The position numbers and the translations under genes are program-made. The notes under the pieces are model-generated. The model ran no database searches and had not been told where the DNA came from. It saw only the letters and a program-made list of their open reading frames with translations. Below, piece by piece: positions 10,658 through 51,636 of a stretch of DNA of 64,000 bases. This stretch comes from Candidatus Kaiserbacteria bacterium CG10_big_fil_rev_8_21_14_0_10_47_16. GTDB taxonomy: Bacteria; Patescibacteriota; Minisyncoccia; Phycocordibacterales; UBA918. The DNA lies in the NCBI GenBank assembly GCA_002773395.1, contig PFBI01000004.1, positions 12,615-76,614 on the forward strand, written 5' to 3'. The first letter of the stretch is position 1; each line of letters begins with the position of its first letter.

Positions 10658-10671
10658 TATCCACATATCAG

Positions 10672-10706
10672 ACACAAAACCCGCGGTATACCGCGGGTTT
10701 TGTGTC
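10672..10706 (+). terminator. Terminator-like perfect hairpin after rplY
   Basis: acacaaaacccgcgg-tata-ccgcgggttttgtgt, a 15-bp stem. Confidence 0.55.
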
Positions 10707-10752
10707 TATAGGCAATCTTCCTGAGCTGGTATAATACTTGGTACACATCGGT

Positions 10753-12126
10753 ATGAAAAAATTCTTTAGCCTCGGCGCCCTCATTGTATTTCTTTCGGTA
10801 AGTCTCGTGCACGTTACATTTGCTGCAGAGACGGAAGCAGAAATGCGTGCTGCGCTTGAAAAGCAACTCTCGGCATACGAAGAGCTTATTAAACAACAAC
10901 AAGCGCTCGTGCAAGGTAAGCAGTCAGAACGACAATCGCTTGAGCGTGACCTCGATCTTATTAATGCACAAATTAAAAAAGCACGTCTTGGTATCCAAGC
11001 GCGTGAACTTGCGATTTCACAAATTGATAATCAGATTGAAGACAAAGTCGGCGTCATTGGGGACCTTACCGAAAGTTTAGAGAAGCAACGTCAATCACTT
11101 GGGCAACTCTTACGTCAAACACAAGAAATTGACGACTACTCACTGATAGAAATGATTTTGAGTAATCAGAGCCTTTCAGAATTCTTTGATGACTTGGAAA
11201 ACTTCCAATCAATTAAATCTTCACTCAACGGTTCTCTCGAGACGGTAAAAGTCACGCGTACCGATACTGAGGAACAGAAAGCGTCCCTTGAAGAGAAGCA
11301 GATTTCAGAGGAGAAGTTGAAGCGACTTCAGGAACAGGAAAAAGCAAATATCGAAGATCAAGAAGCCCAGAAAGCTGAGGTACTTACAGTCACAAAGGGT
11401 GAAGAAGCAAAATATCAGGCACTCTTGCAGCAATCACAAAAAAGCGCAGCGCAAATTAGAGCGCAGCTCTTCGAGGTTTCTGGAGGTGGTGGTGCTATCC
11501 CGTTCCCGGACGCGGTTGCGTTTGCACAGGTTGCAAGTCAGAAGACCGGCGTTTCTGCAGCGCTCATTCTTGCAATCCTTGAACAAGAATCAGCGTATGG
11601 TGCAAATATCGGATCGTGTACCGCGACCGAAATTGTGTACGGTAAGCAAGTGATGCATCCAGATCGCGATCAATCAATCTTCCTTGCACTTGCCACGGAG
11701 CTCGGCTTTGATGTGAATACACAACCAATTTCATGTCCATGGATTCGAAGCGGGGAACGTATCGGATGGGGAGGAGCCATGGGGCCGTCGCAGTTTATTC
11801 CGAGCACGTGGGCATACTACGGAGGAATTGTTGGGTCTGGTACGAGTTATCACTATGATAAAAACAGCGATTACATTCGTAAGTTGACGGGGAAGGATAA
11901 GGCATCGAGCCCATTCAATAATCAGGATGCCTTCATGGCGACCGGACTTCTTATGCGAGACAACGGAGGCGCCGGCGGAACATATAATGCAGAATGGACA
12001 GCGGCAATTCGATATTTTGCAGGGTGGAATGGTCCATCAAACTCAATTAATTATCCATACGGGGATAATGTGATGAAGCGTCGCGCGCGTCTTGAAGGTG
12101 AAATCAAGGTTCTCCAAGGAGGATAG
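10753..12126 (+). CDS. Secreted coiled-coil protein with a C-terminal lytic transglycosylase (MltB/SLT-like) domain
   Basis: Signal peptide, ~250 aa of heptad-like Q/E/K-rich sequence, then …ILEQESAYG…GAMGPSQFIPSTW…. Start taken at MKKFF; the ORF is open from 10738. Confidence 0.65.
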   Translation: MKKFFSLGALIVFLSVSLVHVTFAAETEAEMRAALEKQLSAYEELIKQQQALVQGKQSERQSLERDLDLINAQIKKARLGIQARELAISQIDNQIEDKVGVIGDLTESLEKQRQSLGQLLRQTQEIDDYSLIEMILSNQSLSEFFDDLENFQSIKSSLNGSLETVKVTRTDTEEQKASLEEKQISEEKLKRLQEQEKANIEDQEAQKAEVLTVTKGEEAKYQALLQQSQKSAAQIRAQLFEVSGGGGAIPFPDAVAFAQVASQKTGVSAALILAILEQESAYGANIGSCTATEIVYGKQVMHPDRDQSIFLALATELGFDVNTQPISCPWIRSGERIGWGGAMGPSQFIPSTWAYYGGIVGSGTSYHYDKNSDYIRKLTGKDKASSPFNNQDAFMATGLLMRDNGGAGGTYNAEWTAAIRYFAGWNGPSNSINYPYGDNVMKRRARLEGEIKVLQGG

Positions 12127-12179
12127 TCTTCACCGAGTACTCACTATGGTACTCTTAAGAGAGAGAAAGGAGATTGATC

Positions 12180-12326
12180 ATGACGGAAGAACAGAAGGCA
12201 CAGATGTGTCCTGTGATGACGCTCATGACAGCAGCTATGGAGCAGCAAGAGCGCTTCGACGCACTGACGGCAGGATTTACTGAAATGTGGCTCAGGAGCT
12301 ACTTTCGGTTCTGGATTCCAAAATAA
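12180..12326 (+). CDS. Small hypothetical protein (48 aa; MTEEQKAQMCPVMTLMTAAMEQQERFDALTAGFTEMWLRSYFRFWIPK)
   Basis: AAAGGAG ribosome-binding site 7 nt upstream, and a hairpin terminator downstream. Below the ORF-track length cutoff. No family recognised. Confidence 0.3.
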   Translation: MTEEQKAQMCPVMTLMTAAMEQQERFDALTAGFTEMWLRSYFRFWIPK

Positions 12327-12333
12327 GGAGAAT

Positions 12334-12365
12334 GCGGCGGCTGCCTTTGGGCAGCCGCCTTTCCT
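12334..12365 (+). terminator. Hairpin terminator candidate
   Basis: gcggctgcc-tttg-ggcagccgc followed by cTTTCC. Confidence 0.45.
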
Positions 12366-12405
12366 ATGAGAGTTGCCAAACCGAGAGTTTTTGGTATAGT
12401 ACTGC

Positions 12406-12593
12406 GACCTGACTCGTATTACATCATACGTATTACTATCAGAAGAAACGTATTTCGCTATGACGTCACGCCATTTTGGGCTGCAACATTTAATGGCTCG
12501 ATCTCTCTGAACATATGTTCAGTTCGATCTCCGCCAAAATGTCTCGCTCCAAAATGTCATGACTTTGTATAGCGATGTAATACGAGTCAGGTC
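12406..12593. repeat. Perfect 20-nt inverted repeat: gacctgactcgtattacatc at 12406-12425 and its reverse complement at 12574-12593. It encloses 148 nt containing internal palindromes. The right arm ends 6 nt before the rpmE ATG
   Basis: Read directly from the sequence. Internal perfect palindrome ctgaacatatgttcag (12505-12520). Direct repeat ccaaaatgtc twice. Confidence 0.8.
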
Positions 12594-12599
12594 TCGACT

Positions 12600-12869
12600 A
12601 TGAAAAAAGATATTCACCCAGAAAATTACCGCATGGTCATCTTCCACGACAACTCGTCTGGAGAGCGATTTCTTATTGGTTCAGCTATTGAGTCTACAGA
12701 AACCGAAAAGTGGACTGACGGTAACGAGTACTCAGTGGTACGTGTAGACGTCTCAAGTGCGTCACATCCGTTTTATACAGGACAAGAAAAGGTAATGGAC
12801 ACTGCCGGTCGCGTAGAACGCTTCAAGGCCCGTCAGCAGAAGGCAGGAGGACGCAAAGCAAAAGCGTAA
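12600..12869 (+). CDS. rpmE: 50S ribosomal protein L31, non-zinc (type B, no CxxC) form
   Basis: [10 protein letters not shown]…HPFYTGQ. No cysteine motif. Confidence 0.88.
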
Positions 12870-12875
12870 CGACGA

Positions 12876-12911
12876 AAAACCCCACGCGCCGTTTCGGCGC
12901 GTGGGGTTTTT
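12876..12911 (+). terminator. Rho-independent terminator after rpmE
   Basis: aaaaaccccacgcgccg-tttc-ggcgcgtggggttttt. Confidence 0.8.
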
Positions 12912-12940
12912 CTATGCCATGCTACAATGCGGTCATATTT

Positions 12941-13918
12941 ATGGAATTTTTAGAAGAAAAACTACAAGAATTTCGCGATAATCAGAAAACGCAGTTTTTG
13001 GTGTCGCAATTTGATCTTCTTGCAACAAAGCGTGCTGAAGTTGCGCTCATGCGTGAGGATGCATCTATGCGTGAACTTGCTGAAGAAGAGTTAAAAGAGA
13101 TTGATACCGAACTTGAGCGTCAGTACACAGAAATGGAGACCATTATTGAGAATGCGCGGGAAGAAGATGTAAAGCCGTATGGTGTCATTCTCGAAATTCG
13201 TGCAGGAGCAGGAGGGGAGGAGGCGGCACTCTTTGCAGAAGAACTTGCGCAGATGTATATAAAGTATGCAGAGCTGCAGGGATGGAAAACGACAATCATT
13301 GCAGAATCTCGGGCTGCCCAAGGAGGATACAAAGAAGGAGTTGTCGAGATACTCGGGAGCAGTGTTTATGATGCACTCCGCTATGAGACCGGCGTACACC
13401 GCGTACAACGGATTCCTGTCACCGAGAAGCAGGGACGTATTCACACGTCGACAGCATCAGTAGCGGTGCTCCCAATGCGTAAGAAGCCGACGGTAGACAT
13501 TAAACCAGACGATATTGAAATGGAGTTTTCACGCGCCGGAGGTGCAGGAGGACAGAATGTGAACAAGGTGGAATCTGCGGTACGATTGGTGCACCGCCCA
13601 ACAGGTATTGACGTACGTTCACAGGCAGAGCGCTCACAGCTCAAAAACCGTGAACGAGCGATGAGTCTTCTTATTGCCAAGCTTGAAATGCTTCACGAGG
13701 AAGAGGAAGCGAAGAAGTATGCTGCAGTTCGGAAAGAACAGATTGGCACAGGTGACCGATCGGAAAAGATCCGCACTTACAACTTTCCACAAAGTCGAAT
13801 TACCGATCATCGAATTAAGGAGTCGTGGCATAATATGGAGGAAGTAATGGCCGGAAAGCTTGATGATATTATCGCTGCACTCAAAGTGGCAGCGAGCGGA
13901 AGCGTTGCAGAATTATGA
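12941..13918 (+). CDS. prfA: Peptide chain release factor 1
   Basis: GGQ motif ([18 protein letters not shown]). PVT tripeptide ([14 protein letters not shown]) indicates RF1 rather than RF2. Start at MEFLEE; the ORF is open from 12914, overlapping the terminator. Confidence 0.88.
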
Positions 13919-15344: not shown

Positions 15345-15773
15345 ATGGTAGGACCACTCATCGGTATTGGTATAAGCGGGGTCAGCGTCGCTCTTTTTGC
15401 TGTGCTCTTTCGTATGGAACGTCGTCGCGGACAACGTTTCTTTGAAGAAGCGCGGACACAACTTGATCAACGAGTGTTCCAGATGTTTGCATACATTACA
15501 CGAATAAGCCGATATCTCGGTCGCGATGTTATTCGGCAAAGTATCCACTATGCGGTGCATGTCATACTTCGTGTGTTCCAGAGTTTTATTTCGTTTGTCC
15601 TCACACATGCAAATCGGTTGGAGCGGACCAATAAAGCGCTTGCACAGCGCGCGAAGCAGTTTGGTGAACCGCGTACGAAACTGGATGAACTCGAGGCGCA
15701 CAAGGAGGAAGTCGCTCTCTCTGAGGATGAACGAAAGGCACATAAAGAAGAGTCGATCGGTACACGGTTATAA
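15345..15773 (+). CDS. Hypothetical protein with N-terminal transmembrane segment
   Basis: ORF immediately follows tsf and is followed by a strong terminator. No motif recognised. Confidence 0.4.
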   Translation: MVGPLIGIGISGVSVALFAVLFRMERRRGQRFFEEARTQLDQRVFQMFAYITRISRYLGRDVIRQSIHYAVHVILRVFQSFISFVLTHANRLERTNKALAQRAKQFGEPRTKLDELEAHKEEVALSEDERKAHKEESIGTRL

Positions 15774-15808
15774 AAAATCACCGCTCCTATAGGAGCGGTG
15801 ATTTTTTA
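15773..15808. terminator. Bidirectional rho-independent terminator
   Basis: aaaaaatcaccgctcc-tata-ggagcggtgatttttt. Confidence 0.8.
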
Positions 15809-15826
15809 TAGACATGACCCTAACCT

Positions 15827-15903
15827 TGGAGCCGCCTCTCGGATTCGAACCGAGGACCTACGGTTTACAAAACCGTTGCTCTAACCAACTGAGCTAAGGC
15901 GGC
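15827..15903 (-). tRNA. tRNA-Thr (anticodon TGT), with encoded CCA
   Basis: Reverse complement reads GCCGCCTTAGCTCAGTTGGTTAGAGCAACGGTTTTGTAAACCGTAGGTCCTCGGTTCGAATCCGAGAGGCGGCTCCA. Folded by eye as a cloverleaf; anticodon loop TTTGTAA. Confidence 0.85.
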
Positions 15904-17702: not shown

Positions 17703-17745
17703 AAAAATCCCCTCACAATTCTTTTGAATTGTGAGGGGATTTTTC
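17703..17745 (+). terminator. Rho-independent terminator after the GT2 gene
   Basis: aaaaatcccctcacaattc-tttt-gaattgtgaggggattttt. Confidence 0.8.
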
Positions 17746-18906: not shown

Positions 18907-19632
18907 ATGGACACACAGCACGGACACAAACATCCACTGTCGCAAATGATTGCAGAGATCAATAGTATTTTTGCCGAAATTGGATTTGTGTTTGCTGAAG
19001 GTCCAGAAGCCGAGACTGAATATTACAACTTTGACCAATTGAATGTCCCAAAGGATCACCCGTCACGAGACATGCAGGATACCTTCTGGTTTCGGAAAGA
19101 AGACGTGTCTGAGCCAACGGTACTCCGAACGCATACGTCACCCGTACAGGCTCGGTATATGGAGGCCAATGAGCCGCCAATTCGCGTTATTGTGCCTGGG
19201 AAGGTGTTTCGTAACGAAGCTACCGATGCGACGCATGAGGCGCAGTTTTACCAGCTTGAGGGGCTGTATGTCGACAAAGGCGTCAACATGGGGCACCTCA
19301 AAGGGACACTTGAGTATTTCTTCTCCAAATTCCTCGGTGGGGAGACAGAAGTACGGTTTCGTCCGAGTTTCTTTCCATTCGTGGAGCCGGGTGTAGAAGT
19401 GGATATGAAGGTCTCTTCTTCGAGTGGGAGCAAGCTTGCTGGCCGCTGGGTGGAAATTATGGGAGCAGGTATGGTGCACCCGAGTGTACTGAAGAATGCA
19501 GGAATTGATCCTGAAGTATATTCAGGGTTCGCATTCGGAATGGGAATTGATCGACTTGGCTTTATGAAATATGACCTCGATGATGTACGTAATCTCTACT
19601 CAGGTGACTTGCGTGTAATCAATCAATTTTAG
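18907..19632 (+). CDS. pheS: Phenylalanine--tRNA ligase alpha subunit (short form)
   Basis: …HPSRDMQDTFWF… class II motifs. 241 aa. Confidence 0.9.
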   Translation: MDTQHGHKHPLSQMIAEINSIFAEIGFVFAEGPEAETEYYNFDQLNVPKDHPSRDMQDTFWFRKEDVSEPTVLRTHTSPVQARYMEANEPPIRVIVPGKVFRNEATDATHEAQFYQLEGLYVDKGVNMGHLKGTLEYFFSKFLGGETEVRFRPSFFPFVEPGVEVDMKVSSSSGSKLAGRWVEIMGAGMVHPSVLKNAGIDPEVYSGFAFGMGIDRLGFMKYDLDDVRNLYSGDLRVINQF

Positions 19633-19911
19633 CCCGTTAGAGATAACACATGTCATTTTATGTCTACGTACTCAAAAGCAAACAAGATAATCGATTTTAT
19701 ACTGGCTGTACTAATAACCTACGAAAACGTTTTAATCAGCACAACAAAGGGCAGGTTACTGCAACAAAAAAGAGATTGCCAGTTGAACTTATTTATTATG
19801 AAATGTGCCATAATCAAGAGGATGCATACGCTCGTGAAGAGTATTTAAAAACAGGTATGGGTAAGCGATATATTAAAAACAGATTAAAAGGTTTTCTATC
19901 TCTAACGGGCT
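19631..19911. repeat. Perfect 15-nt inverted repeat: agcccgttagagata at 19631-19645 and tatctctaacgggct at 19897-19911. It exactly brackets the GIY-YIG ORF
   Basis: Read directly. The left arm overlaps the pheS stop codon; the right arm encodes the C-terminus of the GIY-YIG protein. Confidence 0.8.
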
Positions 19912-19913
19912 GA
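19650..19913 (+). CDS. GIY-YIG nuclease superfamily protein (small stand-alone YhbQ/UPF0213-like)
   Basis: FYVYVLKS…DNRFYTGCTNNLRKRFNQHN is a GIY-YIG core. AT-rich compared with its flanks. Confidence 0.8.
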   Translation: MSFYVYVLKSKQDNRFYTGCTNNLRKRFNQHNKGQVTATKKRLPVELIYYEMCHNQEDAYAREEYLKTGMGKRYIKNRLKGFLSLTG

Positions 19914-19915
19914 AT

Positions 19916-21832
19916 ATGAAGGTAGTTTACGATTGGTTAGAAGAATATCTCGGAGAGAATGCACCTAGTTCTGAAAAGGTTGCGGATCTTTTGACATTTC
20001 ATGCATTTGAAATTGAAGGAACTGAAGTGAAAGGAGATCATACTGTTATCGATGTGGACGTACTTCCAAACCGCGCAGCGGATTGTCTCTCACACCGAGG
20101 TATTGCTCGGGAGATAGCATCAATTACAGGGGTGCCACTTGCCCACGATCCGCTCACGGTTCGTCCAGAGCTTCCTACTACAGATAAATTGGTAGCGACA
20201 ATCACAAATCCTGAACATTGTTCGCGGCTCACACTCGCCCTTATGGAAGGGGTCACTATTGGCGATTCACCGGAGTGGCTCAAGAGTCGACTGCAGGCAC
20301 TTGGTCAACGATCAATCAACAATGTTGTTGATGCCACCAACTACGTGATGCTCTCGCTTGGTCAGCCGCTTCATGCGTATGATGCAGCGAAGTGGCAAGA
20401 AAAAGACGGTACATATCATGTTGGTGTTCGTGCTGCCGCAGCCGGCGAGACGATCACGGTGCTTACAGGAGAAACATATGAGCTGACACCGCGGGCACAG
20501 CTTATTGTAGATACAACGAATGATGCGCCAGCAAGTATTGCGGGAATTAAAGGAGGAACCTATGCAGAGATTGGTAAAGAGACGACGACCATTATTCTTG
20601 AAGCTGCACATTTTAATCCGTCTGTGACGCGTGTCGCATCGCAGTTTTTAAAACTACAGACAGATGCATCAAAGCGATTTGAAAATGATCTCTCGCCTGA
20701 GCTTACCCCGTACGCACTTGATGCTGTCGTGAAACTTATTACAGATATCGCAGGAGGAACACTTGTTGGAATTACCGATACATACCCGATGGCGCGGTCA
20801 CAATCGCGCGTTGCAGTGACTGAAGCGAAGACGAACGCGCTTCTCGGACTCTCACTTACGCGAGAGGAGATGAAAGATATTTTGGTTCGTATTGGCGCGA
20901 CGGTTGAGGAAACTAAAGAGGGCTTTGTAGCAGTTGGCCCATGGGAACGAAACGATTTGGATATCGAAGAAGATTTTATTGAAGAGATTGGACGCATTTA
21001 TGGGTATGAGCACGTAGCACCTATTGTGCCGGAACAGATATTACTAAAAGAAATTAATGCTCGTCATTACTATAGCGAACGTGTCCGTGAGGTACTTATT
21101 GGTCTTGGATTCTTTGAAGTCATTACCTCATCATTTCGAAAGAAAGATGAAATCAGATTACAGAACGCACTTGCGAGTGATAAAGAATACCTTCGCTCAT
21201 CATTGAAAAAGAATATTATCGAGGTACTCGATAAAAATATTCCACTCGTCGACGTACTTGGTGTGCGAGACATTCGTGTATTTGAAATTGGTACGGTGTT
21301 CAGTAAAGGAGATGGGGGAGTGACAGAGCGGTTCTCACTTGCGTTTGGCGCTCGTACTCGACAAGATGGTTATAATCCAAAGGACGATGCTGTCCTCACG
21401 GAAGCAATGAGTGTGCTTGAGAAAGACCTTGGAGTATCGCTTGGTACACAGATTGAGAAAGGTGTCGTAGAAATCGCCTTTACCGAGCTCATAACACAGC
21501 TACCACAACCGACTGTATACGAACCACAACCTGTGGGAGCAGAGATACAGTACAAAGCATTTTCTCAATACCCGCACATCGCGCGTGATATTGCGCTCTG
21601 GGTATCTGAGGGAACAACCGCTGCAGATGTGATTGCGGTCTTACAAAAAGAAGCAGGAGATCTCTGTGTACGGATTACACTCTTCGATGAATTTACCAAA
21701 GATGGACGAACGTCATTTGCATTCCGCTTGGTGTTCCAGTCATATGAAAAAACGCTCGCAAGCGAAGAGGTAGATACGATTATGGAAAAAATATACGCTG
21801 CAGTAAAGGGAAACGATTGGGAGGTGCGATAA
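19916..21832 (+). CDS. pheT: Phenylalanine--tRNA ligase beta subunit (short form, 638 aa)
   Basis: N-terminus MKVVYDWLEEYL…, B3/4 and B5 domains, and a C-terminal anticodon-binding-like region. Confidence 0.88.
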   Translation: MKVVYDWLEEYLGENAPSSEKVADLLTFHAFEIEGTEVKGDHTVIDVDVLPNRAADCLSHRGIAREIASITGVPLAHDPLTVRPELPTTDKLVATITNPEHCSRLTLALMEGVTIGDSPEWLKSRLQALGQRSINNVVDATNYVMLSLGQPLHAYDAAKWQEKDGTYHVGVRAAAAGETITVLTGETYELTPRAQLIVDTTNDAPASIAGIKGGTYAEIGKETTTIILEAAHFNPSVTRVASQFLKLQTDASKRFENDLSPELTPYALDAVVKLITDIAGGTLVGITDTYPMARSQSRVAVTEAKTNALLGLSLTREEMKDILVRIGATVEETKEGFVAVGPWERNDLDIEEDFIEEIGRIYGYEHVAPIVPEQILLKEINARHYYSERVREVLIGLGFFEVITSSFRKKDEIRLQNALASDKEYLRSSLKKNIIEVLDKNIPLVDVLGVRDIRVFEIGTVFSKGDGGVTERFSLAFGARTRQDGYNPKDDAVLTEAMSVLEKDLGVSLGTQIEKGVVEIAFTELITQLPQPTVYEPQPVGAEIQYKAFSQYPHIARDIALWVSEGTTAADVIAVLQKEAGDLCVRITLFDEFTKDGRTSFAFRLVFQSYEKTLASEEVDTIMEKIYAAVKGNDWEVR

Positions 21833-25634: not shown

Positions 25635-25640
25635 AATAAA

Positions 25641-25678
25641 AAGAAAACCCCGTGTCAAAGACACGGGGTTTTCTTTTT
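25641..25678. terminator. Bidirectional rho-independent terminator
   Basis: aagaaaaccccgtgtc-aaag-acacggggttttcttttt. Confidence 0.85.
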
Positions 25679-26390
25679 ATAATCCAATTTGTTTGAGAAA
25701 TTCTTTCAGCTCGGCATCTTTGATGATGCGATATTGTGCTGGCTTCATGTCACCAACTGCAAGATTTAAAATTCGTACACGCTTCAATTGCTGTACTTGG
25801 TATCCGAGTCCTGCGCACATACGACGGATCTGGTGCTTCTTACCTTCAGTGAGTGTGATGCGACACCGCGCTGGTCCTGTCTTTTCAACTTGTGCTGGTT
25901 TTGTAAAATATCGTTCAATGCGCATACCAGATTGTATGGTGCGTAAAAACTGATTTGTGATGGGCTTGTCGACGGTCACCTCATACGTGCGTTCGTGGGC
26001 ATGCTCAGGGTTGAGAAGTCGGTCAGTGATGCGACCGTCATCAGTCATAATCATGAGACCTTCAGAGTCTTTATCGAGCCGGCCAATAGGGAAGAGTCCG
26101 GTGAGATTGTAGTCTTCTTTGAGGCGCATGAGAATATCAGTCTCACCTTCAGCAGGAGAGTGGGTAATGACGCCACGTGGTTTGTTGTACACAATGTAGC
26201 GGTATTCTTTATGTTTACTGCGCACATCTACGGTATCGTCTTTGGCAATTTGCTGTCCAAGTGTTGCACGAACACCATTTATAAACACCTTACCCGTTTC
26301 AATGAGTGTGTCAGCACCGCGTCTTGTTGAGAGACCTTTGTGCGCGAGATATTTGTTTATTCGCATGGGAAATTGGAGGTCTTCGTTCAT
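25677..26390 (-). CDS. rRNA pseudouridine synthase (RsuA/RluB family) with an N-terminal S4 domain
   Basis: MRINKYLAHKGLSTRRGADTLI… (S4). …IGRLDKDSEGLMIMTDDG… (catalytic Asp). Confidence 0.8.
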   Translation of the reverse strand: MNEDLQFPMRINKYLAHKGLSTRRGADTLIETGKVFINGVRATLGQQIAKDDTVDVRSKHKEYRYIVYNKPRGVITHSPAEGETDILMRLKEDYNLTGLFPIGRLDKDSEGLMIMTDDGRITDRLLNPEHAHERTYEVTVDKPITNQFLRTIQSGMRIERYFTKPAQVEKTGPARCRITLTEGKKHQIRRMCAGLGYQVQQLKRVRILNLAVGDMKPAQYRIIKDAELKEFLKQIGL

Positions 26391-32815: not shown

Positions 32816-32859
32816 CTTATATTGCAAAAACAAGCTAATTCTGTTATAGTCTCGCCACT

Positions 32860-33210
32860 ATGGTAATTCGAATGCGACATACGCGGTCTCACACAAAGAA
32901 CCGCCGTTCACACCACGCCTTGAAAGCGGTACCGCTTTCAGTGTGTAGTAACTGTGGGGCACATCATCGCCCACACCACATGTGTCTTGATTGTGGTTTT
33001 TATAACGGACGTCAGGTGATGGATCTCAGTACAGAAAAAGCAAAGCGTGAAGCACGCATGCAAGCAAAGCGTGAGATGATCAAAGGTGAAGGATCTATTC
33101 CACAACCAGAGAAAAACGAAGTTTCAGAACCAGTAGCAGAAGATACAACAAAGACCGAAACAAAGGCAAAAAAGACTACGAAGAAGAAGCCGGCGAAAAA
33201 GGTTGAGTAA
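32860..33210 (+). CDS. rpmF: 50S ribosomal protein L32 (zinc-ribbon form) with a Lys-rich C-terminal extension
   Basis: …RRSHHALKAV…CSNCG…CLDCGFY… then a K/T/E-rich tail. Total 116 aa. Confidence 0.8.
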   Translation: MVIRMRHTRSHTKNRRSHHALKAVPLSVCSNCGAHHRPHHMCLDCGFYNGRQVMDLSTEKAKREARMQAKREMIKGEGSIPQPEKNEVSEPVAEDTTKTETKAKKTTKKKPAKKVE

Positions 33211-34245: not shown

Positions 34246-34962
34246 ATGACGCAATCACATGAAATGGCGGGAGTTGATTTTGCAAAACTGGAGTCAATCC
34301 TTGGTATCAGTTTTACAGAAAAGAACCACCTGCTTACTGCAGTCACGCATCGGTCTTATTTAAACGAGCACCGAGAAGCGACGCAGGAACACAACGAACG
34401 ATATGAATTTCTCGGTGACGCAGTTCTCGAACTCGTTATTACAGATTTTCTCTTTGCGAAGTACCCAGAGAAGCCAGAAGGCGAACTCACCGCAATTCGT
34501 GCCGCCCTCGTAAATACCAATTCACTCGCAGACGCATCATCGCGTCTTGGTATTAATGAATTCCTCCTTCTCTCAAAAGGTGAAGCAAAGGATATGGGGC
34601 GTGCACGTCAGTACATTCTTGCGAATACATTCGAATCGATTATTGGCGCACTCTATCTCGATCAGGGATACGAAAAGGCAGGAGAGTTCATCGCGTCACA
34701 ACTCTTTGACCTCACCGATGAAATTGTGAAAAAGCGCCTCTGGCAAGATGCAAAGAGTCGTTTCCAAGAACTATCACAAGAGCACGTGGGAATTACACCA
34801 AACTATCAAACACTCGGACAAGAAGGACCTGACCACGATCGCACCTTTACTATTGGAGTATTTCTCGGAGAGAAGAAAATTGCGGAAGGAAGTGGCCGCG
34901 CAAAACAAGAGGCTGAACAAGACGCTGCAGAGAAAGCCCTTGCAGTGAAAGGCTGGGGTTAA
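34246..34962 (+). CDS. rnc: Ribonuclease III
   Basis: ERYEFLGDAVLE signature, plus a C-terminal dsRBD. Confidence 0.9.
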   Translation: MTQSHEMAGVDFAKLESILGISFTEKNHLLTAVTHRSYLNEHREATQEHNERYEFLGDAVLELVITDFLFAKYPEKPEGELTAIRAALVNTNSLADASSRLGINEFLLLSKGEAKDMGRARQYILANTFESIIGALYLDQGYEKAGEFIASQLFDLTDEIVKKRLWQDAKSRFQELSQEHVGITPNYQTLGQEGPDHDRTFTIGVFLGEKKIAEGSGRAKQEAEQDAAEKALAVKGWG

Positions 34963-34997
34963 TACCTGTAGCGCGCACAAACCACATGCTATAGTTA

Positions 34998-35543
34998 GTG
35001 CATATGTTTTTACGTCTGCGACCACGTGGCTTCACACTCGTTGAGCTCCTTGTAGTACTTGCAGTTATTGCAGTACTCAGTGGGGTGGTGATGGCGAGTG
35101 TCATTCAAGCGCGTCAATCAGCGCAAGATAAACAACGCGTTGCATCTCTCGAGCAACTCAGCCTCTCGCTCGAGGTCTATAAGCAGGCATATGGATCGTA
35201 TCCATTTTCATGTAATGGAACGGGAGTTATGGGAGGTCACGGATCAAACTTCGGCACCTGTACCTCAAACTATATCCAAGGGATGACCAGTATCATTACG
35301 CTTCCCGTAGACCCAAATACGACTGCAGACGGATACCGCTATATCTCAAACGGCACCAGCTACCGACTTGAGTCGTACAACGCACTCCAGAGTAAAACGC
35401 TTTCACCAACTGATGATTACCATGCATGCGCCGCATCGTGCAGTAGTGGCGTCTGTGCGACGTCAGGAGGGCAGTATACGAACGCAAAGACACAGAAGAC
35501 ACTCGCAATTTGGAAAGGCACCACCTATCAGTGTAGTCAATAA
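34998..35543 (+). CDS. Type IV prepilin-like protein (third copy)
   Basis: …RPRG|FTLVELLVVLAVIAVLSGV…. Confidence 0.65.
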   Translation: MHMFLRLRPRGFTLVELLVVLAVIAVLSGVVMASVIQARQSAQDKQRVASLEQLSLSLEVYKQAYGSYPFSCNGTGVMGGHGSNFGTCTSNYIQGMTSIITLPVDPNTTADGYRYISNGTSYRLESYNALQSKTLSPTDDYHACAASCSSGVCATSGGQYTNAKTQKTLAIWKGTTYQCSQ

Positions 35544-40264: not shown

Positions 40265-40328
40265 GGGCGGAGTATAACAGTCATGAGGCATATTGACCAT
40301 ATGGTTACAATCTGTTACAGTTTCGGCC

Positions 40329-40853
40329 ATGCTAAAAATGCGATTACAAAGAACAGGTCGGAAGAATGATGCGTCATTTCGTGTTGTGGTAACTGACTCA
40401 CGTCGCGGTCCAAAAAGCGGCAAACACGTAGATCTTCTTGGTTCATACAATCCAAAAATGAACAATGTACAGATCGACGGAGAAAAGGCTAAGTCTTGGA
40501 TCGCAAAGGGAGTACAGGTATCTGATACGGTACACAATCTTCTCGTAGGCCAAAAGGTTATTGAGGGGAAGAAGATTAACGTTCTCCCACGAAAATCTCC
40601 TGTTATCAACGAAGCAAAGGTGAAGGCAGAAGCAGAAGCTGCAGCTGCAAAGGAGGCGAAGGAAGCCGCTGAAAAAGCGGCAGCCGAAGCACCAGCTGAA
40701 GAAGCTGCACCTGAAGCTGATGTTCCTGCAGAAGCAGAGACAGAAGCTACACCAGAGGAAGCACCAGTAGAAGCAGAAGCTCCAGTAGAACCTGAAGCAG
40801 AAGCAGTTACTGAGGAAGCTCCTGCACCAGAGGCTGAAGAGCCAAAGGCGTAG
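40329..40853 (+). CDS. rpsP: 30S ribosomal protein S16 with an ~85-aa Ala/Glu/Pro-rich C-terminal extension
   Basis: MLKMRLQRTGRKNDASFRVVVTDSRR… then a low-complexity AEAP-type tail. Confidence 0.85.
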   Translation: MLKMRLQRTGRKNDASFRVVVTDSRRGPKSGKHVDLLGSYNPKMNNVQIDGEKAKSWIAKGVQVSDTVHNLLVGQKVIEGKKINVLPRKSPVINEAKVKAEAEAAAAKEAKEAAEKAAAEAPAEEAAPEADVPAEAETEATPEEAPVEAEAPVEPEAEAVTEEAPAPEAEEPKA

Positions 40854-50421: not shown

Positions 50422-50437
50422 ATCCCTACGTATTCGC

Positions 50438-50468
50438 AAAAAGCCGGTGTTTCTAACACCGGCTTTTT
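50438..50468 (+). terminator. Rho-independent terminator after rpoC
   Basis: aaaaagccggtg-tttctaa-caccggcttttt. Confidence 0.85.
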
Positions 50469-50501
50469 GCTATCGCAAGGGTCTGGTCGTATACTGGATA
50501 T

Positions 50502-51208: not shown

Positions 51209-51582
51209 AATAAGCGTCGACTTCCCTAGAGCTAAAGCATTTTAGACAGGGAAGGGCATACTTGCCTATCAAGTATGAAATTCTTTTGACCGACAGTCTC
51301 CGGAAATGTATCGAAATAGAGATCGGAGAGAGTTCGTAGATATTAAAGAGAGAATAATTATGGAGACGAGGATCAACTCGGTACAAAGCCCAGCGCCTTA
51401 ACTGCAGGGAACCCCCTCATTGTATAATGTATAAGCGTCGCACAATATATCTTTTACGACCTATATATACATCTAAACAAAGCTCTGTACGCCTCTGTGA
51501 GGTTCCTTGATTGGTTGAGCCATAGTAAGAGTCCTGTGTGTACTACTATCTTTTATCAACGTAATCCTTAAATCGTAAAATA

Positions 51583-51615
51583 ACAAAAAGCTGCACATTT
51601 GTGCAGCTTTTTGTT
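51583..51615. terminator. Bidirectional rho-independent terminator
   Basis: aacaaaaagctgcaca-ttt-gtgcagctttttgtt. Confidence 0.8.
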
Positions 51616-51636
51616 ATTTTCTTTCTTGGTTTGAAT

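Follow-up and report, generated by a model that had tools for sequence, protein, structure and literature searches.

The rpmE locus

The stretch of DNA that we analysed, which we call the window, covers 64,000 nucleotides of the genome of a Parcubacteria/Kaiserbacteria-like CPR bacterium. It contains rpmE, the gene encoding ribosomal protein L31, with a small open reading frame upstream and prfA downstream (Table 1). Between the promoter of rpmE and its start codon lies a 188-nt segment (12406-12593) that begins and ends with the two arms of a perfect inverted repeat, which enclose 148 nt. This segment, hereafter the element, is the subject of the present analysis.

Table 1. Coordinates of features at the rpmE locus, and of rnc, in the window
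Feature	Coordinates	Strand	Description
48-aa ORF	12180-12326	+	upstream of rpmE; good SD
Intrinsic terminator of 48-aa ORF	12336-12359	+	10-bp GC-rich stem, 4-nt loop, TTT
rpmE promoter	12373-12400	+	-35 TTGCCA (12373-12378), 16-nt spacer, extended -10 TGgTATAGT (12392-12400)
CGAC, left copy of 4-nt direct repeat	12405-12408	.	read from the sequence
Left arm of perfect 20-nt inverted repeat	12406-12425	+	GACCTGACTCGTATTACATC; terminal inverted repeat (TIR) or 5' strand of closing stem
Closing stem (predicted)	12406-12425 / 12574-12593	+	20 bp, 20/20 paired
Side hairpin (predicted)	12426-12454	+	10 pairs, at three-way junction (MFE and centroid structures); 29 nt, asymmetric
Palindrome	12426-12433		ATACGTAT; inside side hairpin
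Long imperfect hairpin (predicted)	12457-12573	+	42 pairs, arms of about 56 nt
16-nt palindrome	12507-12522		CTGAACATATGTTCAG; apex of long imperfect hairpin
Right arm of perfect 20-nt inverted repeat	12574-12593	+	exact reverse complement of GACCTGACTCGTATTACATC
CGAC, right copy of 4-nt direct repeat	12595-12598	.	within the 6-nt spacer 12594-12599
rpmE	12600-12869	+	bL31, 89 aa, cysteine-free; PF01197, E = 8.5e-25
rpmE terminator	12874-12912
prfA	starts 12941		leaderless, 12 nt after TGcTACAAT box
rnc (RNase III)	34246-34962	+	PF14622, PF00636, dsrm domain; ERYEFLGD signature; not part of the element

An earlier note on this DNA had identified the encoded L31 as the non-zinc type B form. This identification holds, given the lack of cysteine, the match to PF01197 and the name assigned by NCBI, 'type B 50S ribosomal protein L31'. 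The note's accompanying hint of conditional, zinc-related expression does not fit the locus. In this clade the type B L31 is the housekeeping rpmE, located beside prfA and behind an ordinary promoter that is common to relatives. For these reasons, and because no contiguous Zur-like palindrome is present, we rejected the idea that the gene is a Zur-regulated C- paralogue that serves as backup to a C+ copy. Words that resemble Zur half-sites do occur; they lie far apart and are the two strands of the hairpin described below, so that a Zur box was rejected as well.

The terminator that follows the 48-aa open reading frame closes the preceding transcription unit, and rpmE therefore needs a promoter of its own. 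The promoter listed in Table 1 is the sole sigma-70-like site in 12100-13000, with agreement at 10 of 12 positions plus the TG of the extended -10 box. Transcription is predicted from this promoter to start at about 12407, i.e., at one of the first two bases of the left arm. Apart from this promoter, the window has ten extended -10 motifs, five of which lie 7-12 nt before start codons, namely those of prfA, L32, S16, a pilin-like gene and an M23 peptidase. Leaderless expression is thus normal in this genome, which makes the rpmE promoter call credible.

Two further candidate signals were considered and rejected. The possible internal promoter TTTGTATAGC (12564-12573) is a -10 box that lacks the final T and has no -35 box, and the scanner made no call there. 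A 14-codon upstream open reading frame runs from an ATG at 12559 to a TGA at 12601 and overlaps rpmE in an AUGA, as might be expected of an arrangement for translational coupling. We judge it to be a chance occurrence, because rpmE begins with ATGAAA, such that any open +2 frame ends there, and because the frame has no SD.

Sequence and predicted fold of the element

The inverted repeat is present as the earlier note had reported it. When we shuffled the dinucleotides of the window, none of 100 shuffles gave two matches to the arms, even with 3 mismatches allowed. The right arm also ends 6 nt before the ATG of L31 (12593 as against 12600), and the two internal palindromes, CTGAACATATGTTCAG and ATACGTAT, are both present. 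The description of the CCAAAATGTC repeat as tandem stands only in part: there are two copies, at 12534-12543 and 12549-12558, but their starts are 15 nt apart and 5 nt separate them. A further word, CCAAAATG, is found three times in the long hairpin, at 12534, at 12549 and, as an inverted copy, at 12472. These inner palindromes and repeats are simply parts of one larger symmetry.

Five contigs, each from a different sample and drawn from two sources (JGI and ENA), carry the 188-nt segment without a single base difference. This excludes an assembly artefact. The element has no coding capacity: the only long open reading frame through it matches no Pfam family. A search with the translated element, meant also to catch copies annotated elsewhere as open reading frames, found no homologue among 5.8 billion protein clusters.

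The earlier note had pointed to the potential for a very long closing stem in the RNA, and the folding bears this out. The element is predicted to form one branched hairpin or rod of 72 pairs, which is closed by the perfect 20-bp stem and lacks any large central bubble. The predicted free energy of the 188 nt is -81.4 kcal/mol, compared with a mean of -43 for dinucleotide shuffles (z = -9.2). Folding is equally strong on the opposite strand (z = -10.4), and 71 of the 72 pairs are Watson-Crick pairs, the remaining one being G-U. Such a predominance of Watson-Crick pairs, together with folding on both strands, would be expected of a palindrome in DNA rather than of a structure that evolved as RNA. 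An additional point concerns the distribution of the pairs, as all 20 of the outer positions are paired versus 42 of 56 in the inner arms. This difference indicates that the termini are specially conserved, in the manner of terminal inverted repeats.

It had been proposed that the closing stem occludes the translation start, like a riboswitch, thermosensor or protein-binding leader. The prediction argues against this proposal. The AUG and its 6-nt spacer are outside the stem, there is no Shine-Dalgarno sequence (the best SD-like word, AGG, is inside the stem), and the closing stem is predicted to be intact at 80 C. Since the stem is predicted to persist at this temperature and does not include the AUG, the hairpin cannot be a thermometer or a switch. 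Folding with the coding region included predicts a weak pairing between GACUAUG (12596-12602) and CAUGGUC (12631-12637).

Searches with Rfam models were also negative. There is no match in 12360-12600 at E-values up to 10, with the 6S and L31-leader models included, and nothing relevant was found in the loci of twelve relatives. In the whole window at gathering thresholds, the tRNA at 15830-15903 is the only match.

Comparison of rpmE loci

We compared rpmE loci from GTDB genomes with those of assemblies chosen because their L31 proteins are the closest, which gave 31 Paceibacteria loci including that of the window. An extended -10 box is found in 29 of these 31 loci, and the distance from the -10 box to the ATG varies. 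It is 7-11 nt in 16 loci according to a regular expression, or in 18 when two cases found by inspection are included (L026 and the original ATG of L030). A distance of 18-26 nt occurs in 3 loci, 47-54 nt in 6 loci (a leader that we call type A) and 87-110 nt in 3 loci (type B). The window alone has 199 nt, and is the outlier among the 31 loci. On the basis of these distances, rpmE is predicted to be mostly leaderless in Paceibacteria.

The closest relatives are the most informative. The cluster of proteins at 90% identity that contains this L31 has one other member (P0121), which is 93% identical and is encoded on eight contigs (L110-L117). The upstream region on these contigs reads TTGCCA-aatgtggcgtttttgg-TATAGT-actccggca-ATG and contains no hairpin. 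The contigs also carry, upstream of rpmE, the homologous small-ORF cassette with its terminator. L086 and L087, whose L31 is 87% identical, share this promoter and 9-nt spacer and likewise have no hairpin; in L086 the promoter comes directly after the upstream gene. The arrangement TTGCCA-16-TGGTATAGT is common to the window and its relatives L110 and L086. If positions 12406-12593 are removed from the window, what remains is TATAGT-actgctcgact-ATG, in which 11 nt separate the -10 box from the start codon, i.e., the leaderless layout of the clade. It should be kept in mind that this correspondence with the empty sites was read by eye; MAFFT wrongly placed the relatives' promoter at the right end of the element.

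The hairpin is absent from all 30 other Paceibacteria rpmE loci, the two closest relatives included, and it resembles the type A and type B leaders in neither sequence nor shape. No orthologous rpmE leader has the structure, so the idea of a conserved leader, which the earlier note had suggested checking in the upstream regions of relatives, is not upheld; the note had itself named such an absence as grounds for refuting a regulatory leader. Because relatives express rpmE without the leader, the element is a lineage-specific insertion and not a conserved riboswitch. Two observations favour the alternative raised in the same note, namely insertion of an inverted-repeat element ahead of rpmE: the site is cleanly empty in both of the closest relatives, and the clade has a mostly leaderless layout. 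The insertion appears to postdate the split from the closest sampled relatives. It can be dated only loosely, however, because even these are just ~77% identical in DNA.

A probable MITE-like insertion

We think it probable, with moderate confidence, that 12406-12593 is a lineage-specific palindromic insertion of the MITE type at about position +1 of an ancestrally leaderless rpmE, and that it is probably co-transcribed with the gene. The -10 box and the AUG would have been roughly 9-11 nt apart when the insertion landed between them. Several traits of MITEs are found: perfect terminal inverted repeats, a length of 188 nt without coding content, and an empty site in L110-L117 and in L086/L087.

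Other traits are less clear. The CGAC direct repeat could be a target-site duplication, but this assignment is ambiguous because it overlaps the end of the inverted repeat. Deleting one CGAC together with the 186 nt between the copies leaves actgcgact, which has 9 nt like the relatives' actccggca and is identical to it at 6 of 9 positions. The flanks of the element itself, actgc and tcgact, do not simply reconstitute actccggca. There is no TA target duplication at the element's flanks.

We also searched for further copies. No second copy occurs in the 64-kb window or in 20 kb of flanking sequence, which together make 84 kb out of at least 624 kb of genome, nor in approximately 0.6 Mb of other sequence, which comprised viral contigs, one metagenome contig and the rpmE loci of relatives. 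A scan of IMG/VR with 15-mers gave only 17 chance matches, each to a single arm, and distant-mode blastn against plasmid and phage collections gave no match. A scan of JGI metagenomes with the 18-nt terminus found one chance match, in a gpmI-like coding region; the contig from which the element comes was itself not recovered, and for this reason the scan is uninformative about the source genome. The MITE reading offered in the earlier note is sustained as regards insertion, given the empty sites; the 84 kb of genome searched contained no further copy. Its comparison with a GIY-YIG cassette (19623-19919) likewise holds for the presence of terminal inverted repeats that abut a start codon, but not for a common repeat sequence, since the repeats are unrelated.

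Given that a second copy was not found and that the target-site duplication is ambiguous, we use the term MITE-like in preference to MITE. By size and shape, the element would best be regarded as a palindromic insertion of the Correia or ERIC kind, without being a proven MITE.

Relation to known elements

The most instructive comparison is with the Correia elements of Neisseria (CREE or NEMIS), which are non-coding, about 100-160 bp long, have TIRs of about 26 bp, and are often located between a promoter and its gene (PMC2649163). When so located they are co-transcribed, and their hairpin is bound or cleaved by RNase III, such that downstream expression is altered (PMC2649163); the element described here is a candidate for such cleavage. 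Correia elements differ in their high copy number (100-250 per genome) and their insertion at TA, and they may carry IHF sites and promoter halves. Our element has one known copy, no TA duplication, a TIR of 20 bp and a CPR host. In view of the missing TA flanks, the single known copy and the non-Neisseria host, we rejected membership in the Correia family.

Similar considerations apply to ERIC/IRU, RUP and BOX elements. Like the element, they are imperfect palindromes of 100-200 bp that lie in transcribed intergenic regions and vary in presence or absence between related genomes. Such repeats affect mRNA structure and stability (reviews: PMC2229807, PMC3184786, PMC10969869). These are defined repeat families, however, and our element is known from one copy.

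A stable stem-loop in the 5' UTR of rpmE is also found in E. coli, where it is the autoregulatory leader of bL31 (PMC7297116). The E. coli operator is conserved in gamma-proteobacteria and separates an AU-rich enhancer from the SD. In contrast, the hairpin in the window is unconserved, approximately ten times more stable, has no SD and matches no Rfam family.

Intervening sequences (IVSs) of rRNA are a further point of reference. They are inserted hairpins with a long, near-perfect closing helix, and RNase III removes them without re-ligation of the flanks. The element resembles them in its near-perfect closing helix, which brings the flanks together, although removal by RNase III is hypothetical in our case and IVSs are located in rRNA helices.

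Predicted consequences for the rpmE mRNA

The old promoter is intact and is predicted to fire at about the point where the left arm begins, so that rpmE mRNA probably carries the element at its 5' end. The transcript would then start with the element, which would fold into a very stable, self-contained rod. A leader of 193 nt would replace the leaderless mRNA start, with its 5' end base-paired and with the AUG located 6 nt past the helix and not preceded by an SD. As the AUG would no longer be 5'-terminal, we infer that leaderless (5'-AUG) initiation is lost. To make L31, ribosomes would have to initiate internally, without an SD, on the A-rich start region, or else initiate after trimming of the 5' end.

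Two ribonucleases are of particular interest in this context. A paired 5' end protects an mRNA against 5'-dependent RNase J, and the paired end of the element would shield rpmE mRNA in this way. A perfect helix of 20 bp, or about two turns, is the classical minimal substrate of RNase III, which makes the closing stem a candidate cleavage site. Within the window we find both the uninterrupted 20-bp helix, as predicted for a transcript that is itself deduced from the promoter, and an rnc gene (Table 1). It is therefore plausible, on the strength of the modelled fold, that the element is an RNase III substrate. CPR genomes generally keep rnc, rnj and pnp, which encode RNase III, RNase J and PNPase (PMC12641178).

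Alternative explanations

The first alternative is that the hairpin is, or has become, a cis-regulatory leader of rpmE, either as an operator for feedback by L31 or through RNase III-dependent control. It is compatible with an origin by insertion, provided that the inserted element was later exapted. The precedent is E. coli, where bL31 represses its own gene by feedback through a stable stem-loop in the 5' UTR (PMC7297116). Moreover, other Paceibacteria have gained conserved structured leaders at this position (type A in 6 loci and type B in 3), and both types show some compensatory pairs; however, the hairpin has no sequence or shape in common with either type, occurs at none of the other 30 loci, those of the two closest relatives among them, and belongs to no Rfam family. 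One could also cite the fixation of the element, which is invariant in five samples, the presence of rnc, and the contrast between a perfect outer stem and inner arms that are 75% paired. Against this must be set the single G-U among 72 pairs, the position of the AUG outside the stem with no SD to mask, and a stability of about -80 kcal/mol that leaves no room for switching. Overall we consider a regulatory role unlikely, although worth bearing in mind.

A related and distinctly doubtful suggestion is that the element is a self-insulating leader similar to an IVS, and that the junction between the transcription start and the AUG of the ancestrally leaderless rpmE is a recurrent site in Paceibacteria at which hairpin leaders land or are selected. 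The closing helix would be kept because RNase III, or compaction of the RNA, clears the 188 nt and yields a short-leader rpmE mRNA. In this connection, at least four unrelated forms of leader occur at the rpmE junction: the element in the window, type A, type B, and an insertion in L030 that has a duplicated ATGA and a coupled upstream open reading frame. If the suggestion is true, a leaderless ribosomal-protein gene has repeatedly been converted to one with a structured leader, possibly for feedback control by L31.

It is also conceivable, but improbable in our view, that the palindrome arose locally, by a template switch in replication or by inverted duplication, and thus is neither mobile DNA nor part of a repeat family. 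This would account for the single known copy, for the lack of a clear target-site duplication, and for the fact that the whole segment is palindromic, rather than the ends alone. Yet no donor sequence from which an arm could have been copied is found nearby or in relatives, and the asymmetric 29-nt side hairpin breaks the symmetry. The decay of the palindrome is informative here too, since uniform decay would give 20/20 paired outer positions beside 75% inner pairing with a probability of only ~0.75^20 = 0.003.

Two other explanations have little to recommend them. A gene for a stable small RNA, such as a 6S-like rod or a retron-like msr/msd that is processed off the rpmE transcript, would suit the length of 188 nt, a promoter predicted to fire at the first base, a long closing stem formed by the two ends and a rod-like shape overall, but it is very hard to reconcile with the lack of an Rfam match at E up to 10 (6S models included), the absence of a large central bubble, the absence of the element at the rpmE locus of close relatives, and the lack of any adjacent reverse transcriptase or other partner gene.

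Finally, the nested palindromes might be DNA operators, either a LexA-type GAAC-N4-GTTC box at 12509-12520 or a Zur/Fur-type box for a zinc-independent L31. GAAC-N4-GTTC is the established LexA consensus of Gram-positive bacteria, and the apex GAACATATGTTC fits its core. We regard this explanation as scarcely credible: such boxes are not enriched in the window (3 found versus 1.5 expected, with 20 of 100 shuffles as high), the other two have no palindromic spacer, the site lies ~100 nt downstream of the predicted transcription start, and there is no contiguous Zur-like palindrome. In many bacteria type B L31 paralogues are regulated by Zur (PMC9825181), but relatives drive their type B rpmE from the same promoter without such a box.

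Implications

As a MITE-like palindromic insertion in a 5' UTR, the element is in itself of an ordinary kind. Palindromic elements of this sort are little described in this phylum, and the phrase 'miniature inverted-repeat' is absent from the eight top-ranked papers on CPR bacteria or Patescibacteria among those searched.

It is important to distinguish the element from the other leaders encountered in this comparison. Several Paceibacteria lineages carry different, undescribed structured leaders at the rpmE junction. In a search for new regulatory RNAs of L31, these leaders are stronger candidates than the hairpin in the window.

The interest of the insertion lies in its position. If the MITE-like element is transcribed as we infer, a leaderless ribosomal-protein mRNA has in effect been converted to one with a fully paired leader of 193 nt that has no SD, and the locus would constitute a natural experiment. 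In a CPR host that relies heavily on leaderless promoters, it becomes worth asking how the cell continues to produce L31.

Leaders of rpmE in other Paceibacteria

Two classes of leader were found among rpmE loci from other Paceibacteria, both differing from the hairpin that precedes rpmE, the gene for ribosomal protein L31, in the window. The first, type A, is 47-54 nt long in six loci and has a conserved 6-bp hairpin, GGTCGC...GTGGCC, whose loop contains CTAA and whose stem includes several G-U pairs and two compensatory pairs. It has no SD, and a scan of the relatives' loci with Rfam matched it to no family. We consider type A to be a candidate for a new L31 leader.

Type B leaders (87-110 nt in three loci) are conserved in their closing stem, GGTGTTCCC / GGGAACGCC, and in a GCTTATTATATTCC stretch; within these lies a variable hairpin that is nearly perfect. 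The same Rfam scan gave no match for this class. A short leader of 18 nt in a further locus, L088, is similar to the 5' part of the type B leader.

Hairpin elements and other repeats

A hairpin of about 120 nt is also inserted at the rpmE start in L030, a locus from another Paceibacterota MAG, and this insertion is independent of the 188-nt palindromic element in the window. It has an inverted repeat of 14 nt (ATCCCGTTAGAAAT / ATTTCTAATGGGAT), and both of its sides carry ATGA(A), a duplication of the start-codon region that resembles a target-site duplication. The former leaderless ATG now starts a uORF that runs through the insert; its stop codon, TAA, precedes the new ATG of rpmE by 5 nt. 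This arrangement would permit coupling by termination and reinitiation.

Within the window, an 87-aa GIY-YIG ORF (PF01541) is flanked by an inverted repeat of 23 nt (87%), with the pheS stop codon in its left arm and the pheT ATG in its right arm. The core of this repeat, CCCGTTAGAGAT, and the L030 terminal repeat agree at 11 of 12 positions, which hints that the GIY-YIG cassette and the rpmE insertion in L030 belong to a common element family. The GIY-YIG terminal repeat and the rpmE hairpin of the window are unrelated in sequence.

The rpmE element itself contains three copies of the octamer CCAAAATG, one of them inverted; these could represent a protein-binding subterminal repeat or mere hairpin symmetry. 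When the leader and coding region were folded jointly, the segment GACUAUG, in which the start codon of rpmE lies, was predicted to pair with CAUGGUC in codons 11-13, the upstream half of this stem being located in a spacer specific to the window. Numerous perfect hairpins of 16-21 nt also occur in the window, flanked by runs of A on one side and of T on the other, and these look like intergenic bidirectional intrinsic terminators.

In a scan of metagenome contigs for exact 18-mers, the element-bearing JGI contigs Ga0210043_1000005 and Ga0066639_10000796 were not recovered; the scanned contig set therefore excludes their samples.

Promoter context and apparently leaderless genes

The rpmE promoter is separated from the SLT-like gene by a small-gene cassette, consisting in the window of a terminator and a 48-aa ORF that has an AAAGGAG SD and matches no Pfam family. 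Of the two closest relatives, L110 encodes a 47-aa homologue of this ORF, and L086 is without the cassette, its rpmE promoter directly following the SLT-gene stop.

Apart from that of rpmE, the window has ten extended -10 motifs (TGnTA[TC]A[AG]T), five of which are positioned 7-12 nt upstream of a start codon. Leaderless mRNAs thus seem to be common in this CPR genome, with ribosomal-protein genes among them.

Locations of features in the window and in rpmE loci of other Paceibacteria (L-numbers)
Feature	Location	Remarks
Type A leader	L015, L016, L018, L021, L022, L024	roughly 50 nt before rpmE
Type B leader	L008:2414-2500; L010:2391-2500; L023:2392-2500	
Hairpin insertion at rpmE start	L030:1040-1190	
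GIY-YIG ORF	window 19623-19919	between pheS and pheT
Octamer copies	window 12472-12479, 12534-12541, 12549-12556	first copy inverted
Predicted start-codon stem	window 12596-12602 / 12631-12637	
A-run/T-run hairpins	window 10670-10707, 15769-15810, 17703-17744, 25636-25680, 50436-50470, 51577-51620	
Small-gene cassette	window 12127-12372; L110:2817-3070	
Extended -10 box before prfA	window 12920-12943	
Extended -10 box before L32	window 32842-32862	
Extended -10 box before pilin-like gene	window 34987-35006	
Extended -10 box before S16	window 40313-40331	
Extended -10 box before M23 peptidase	window 57962-57942	minus strand
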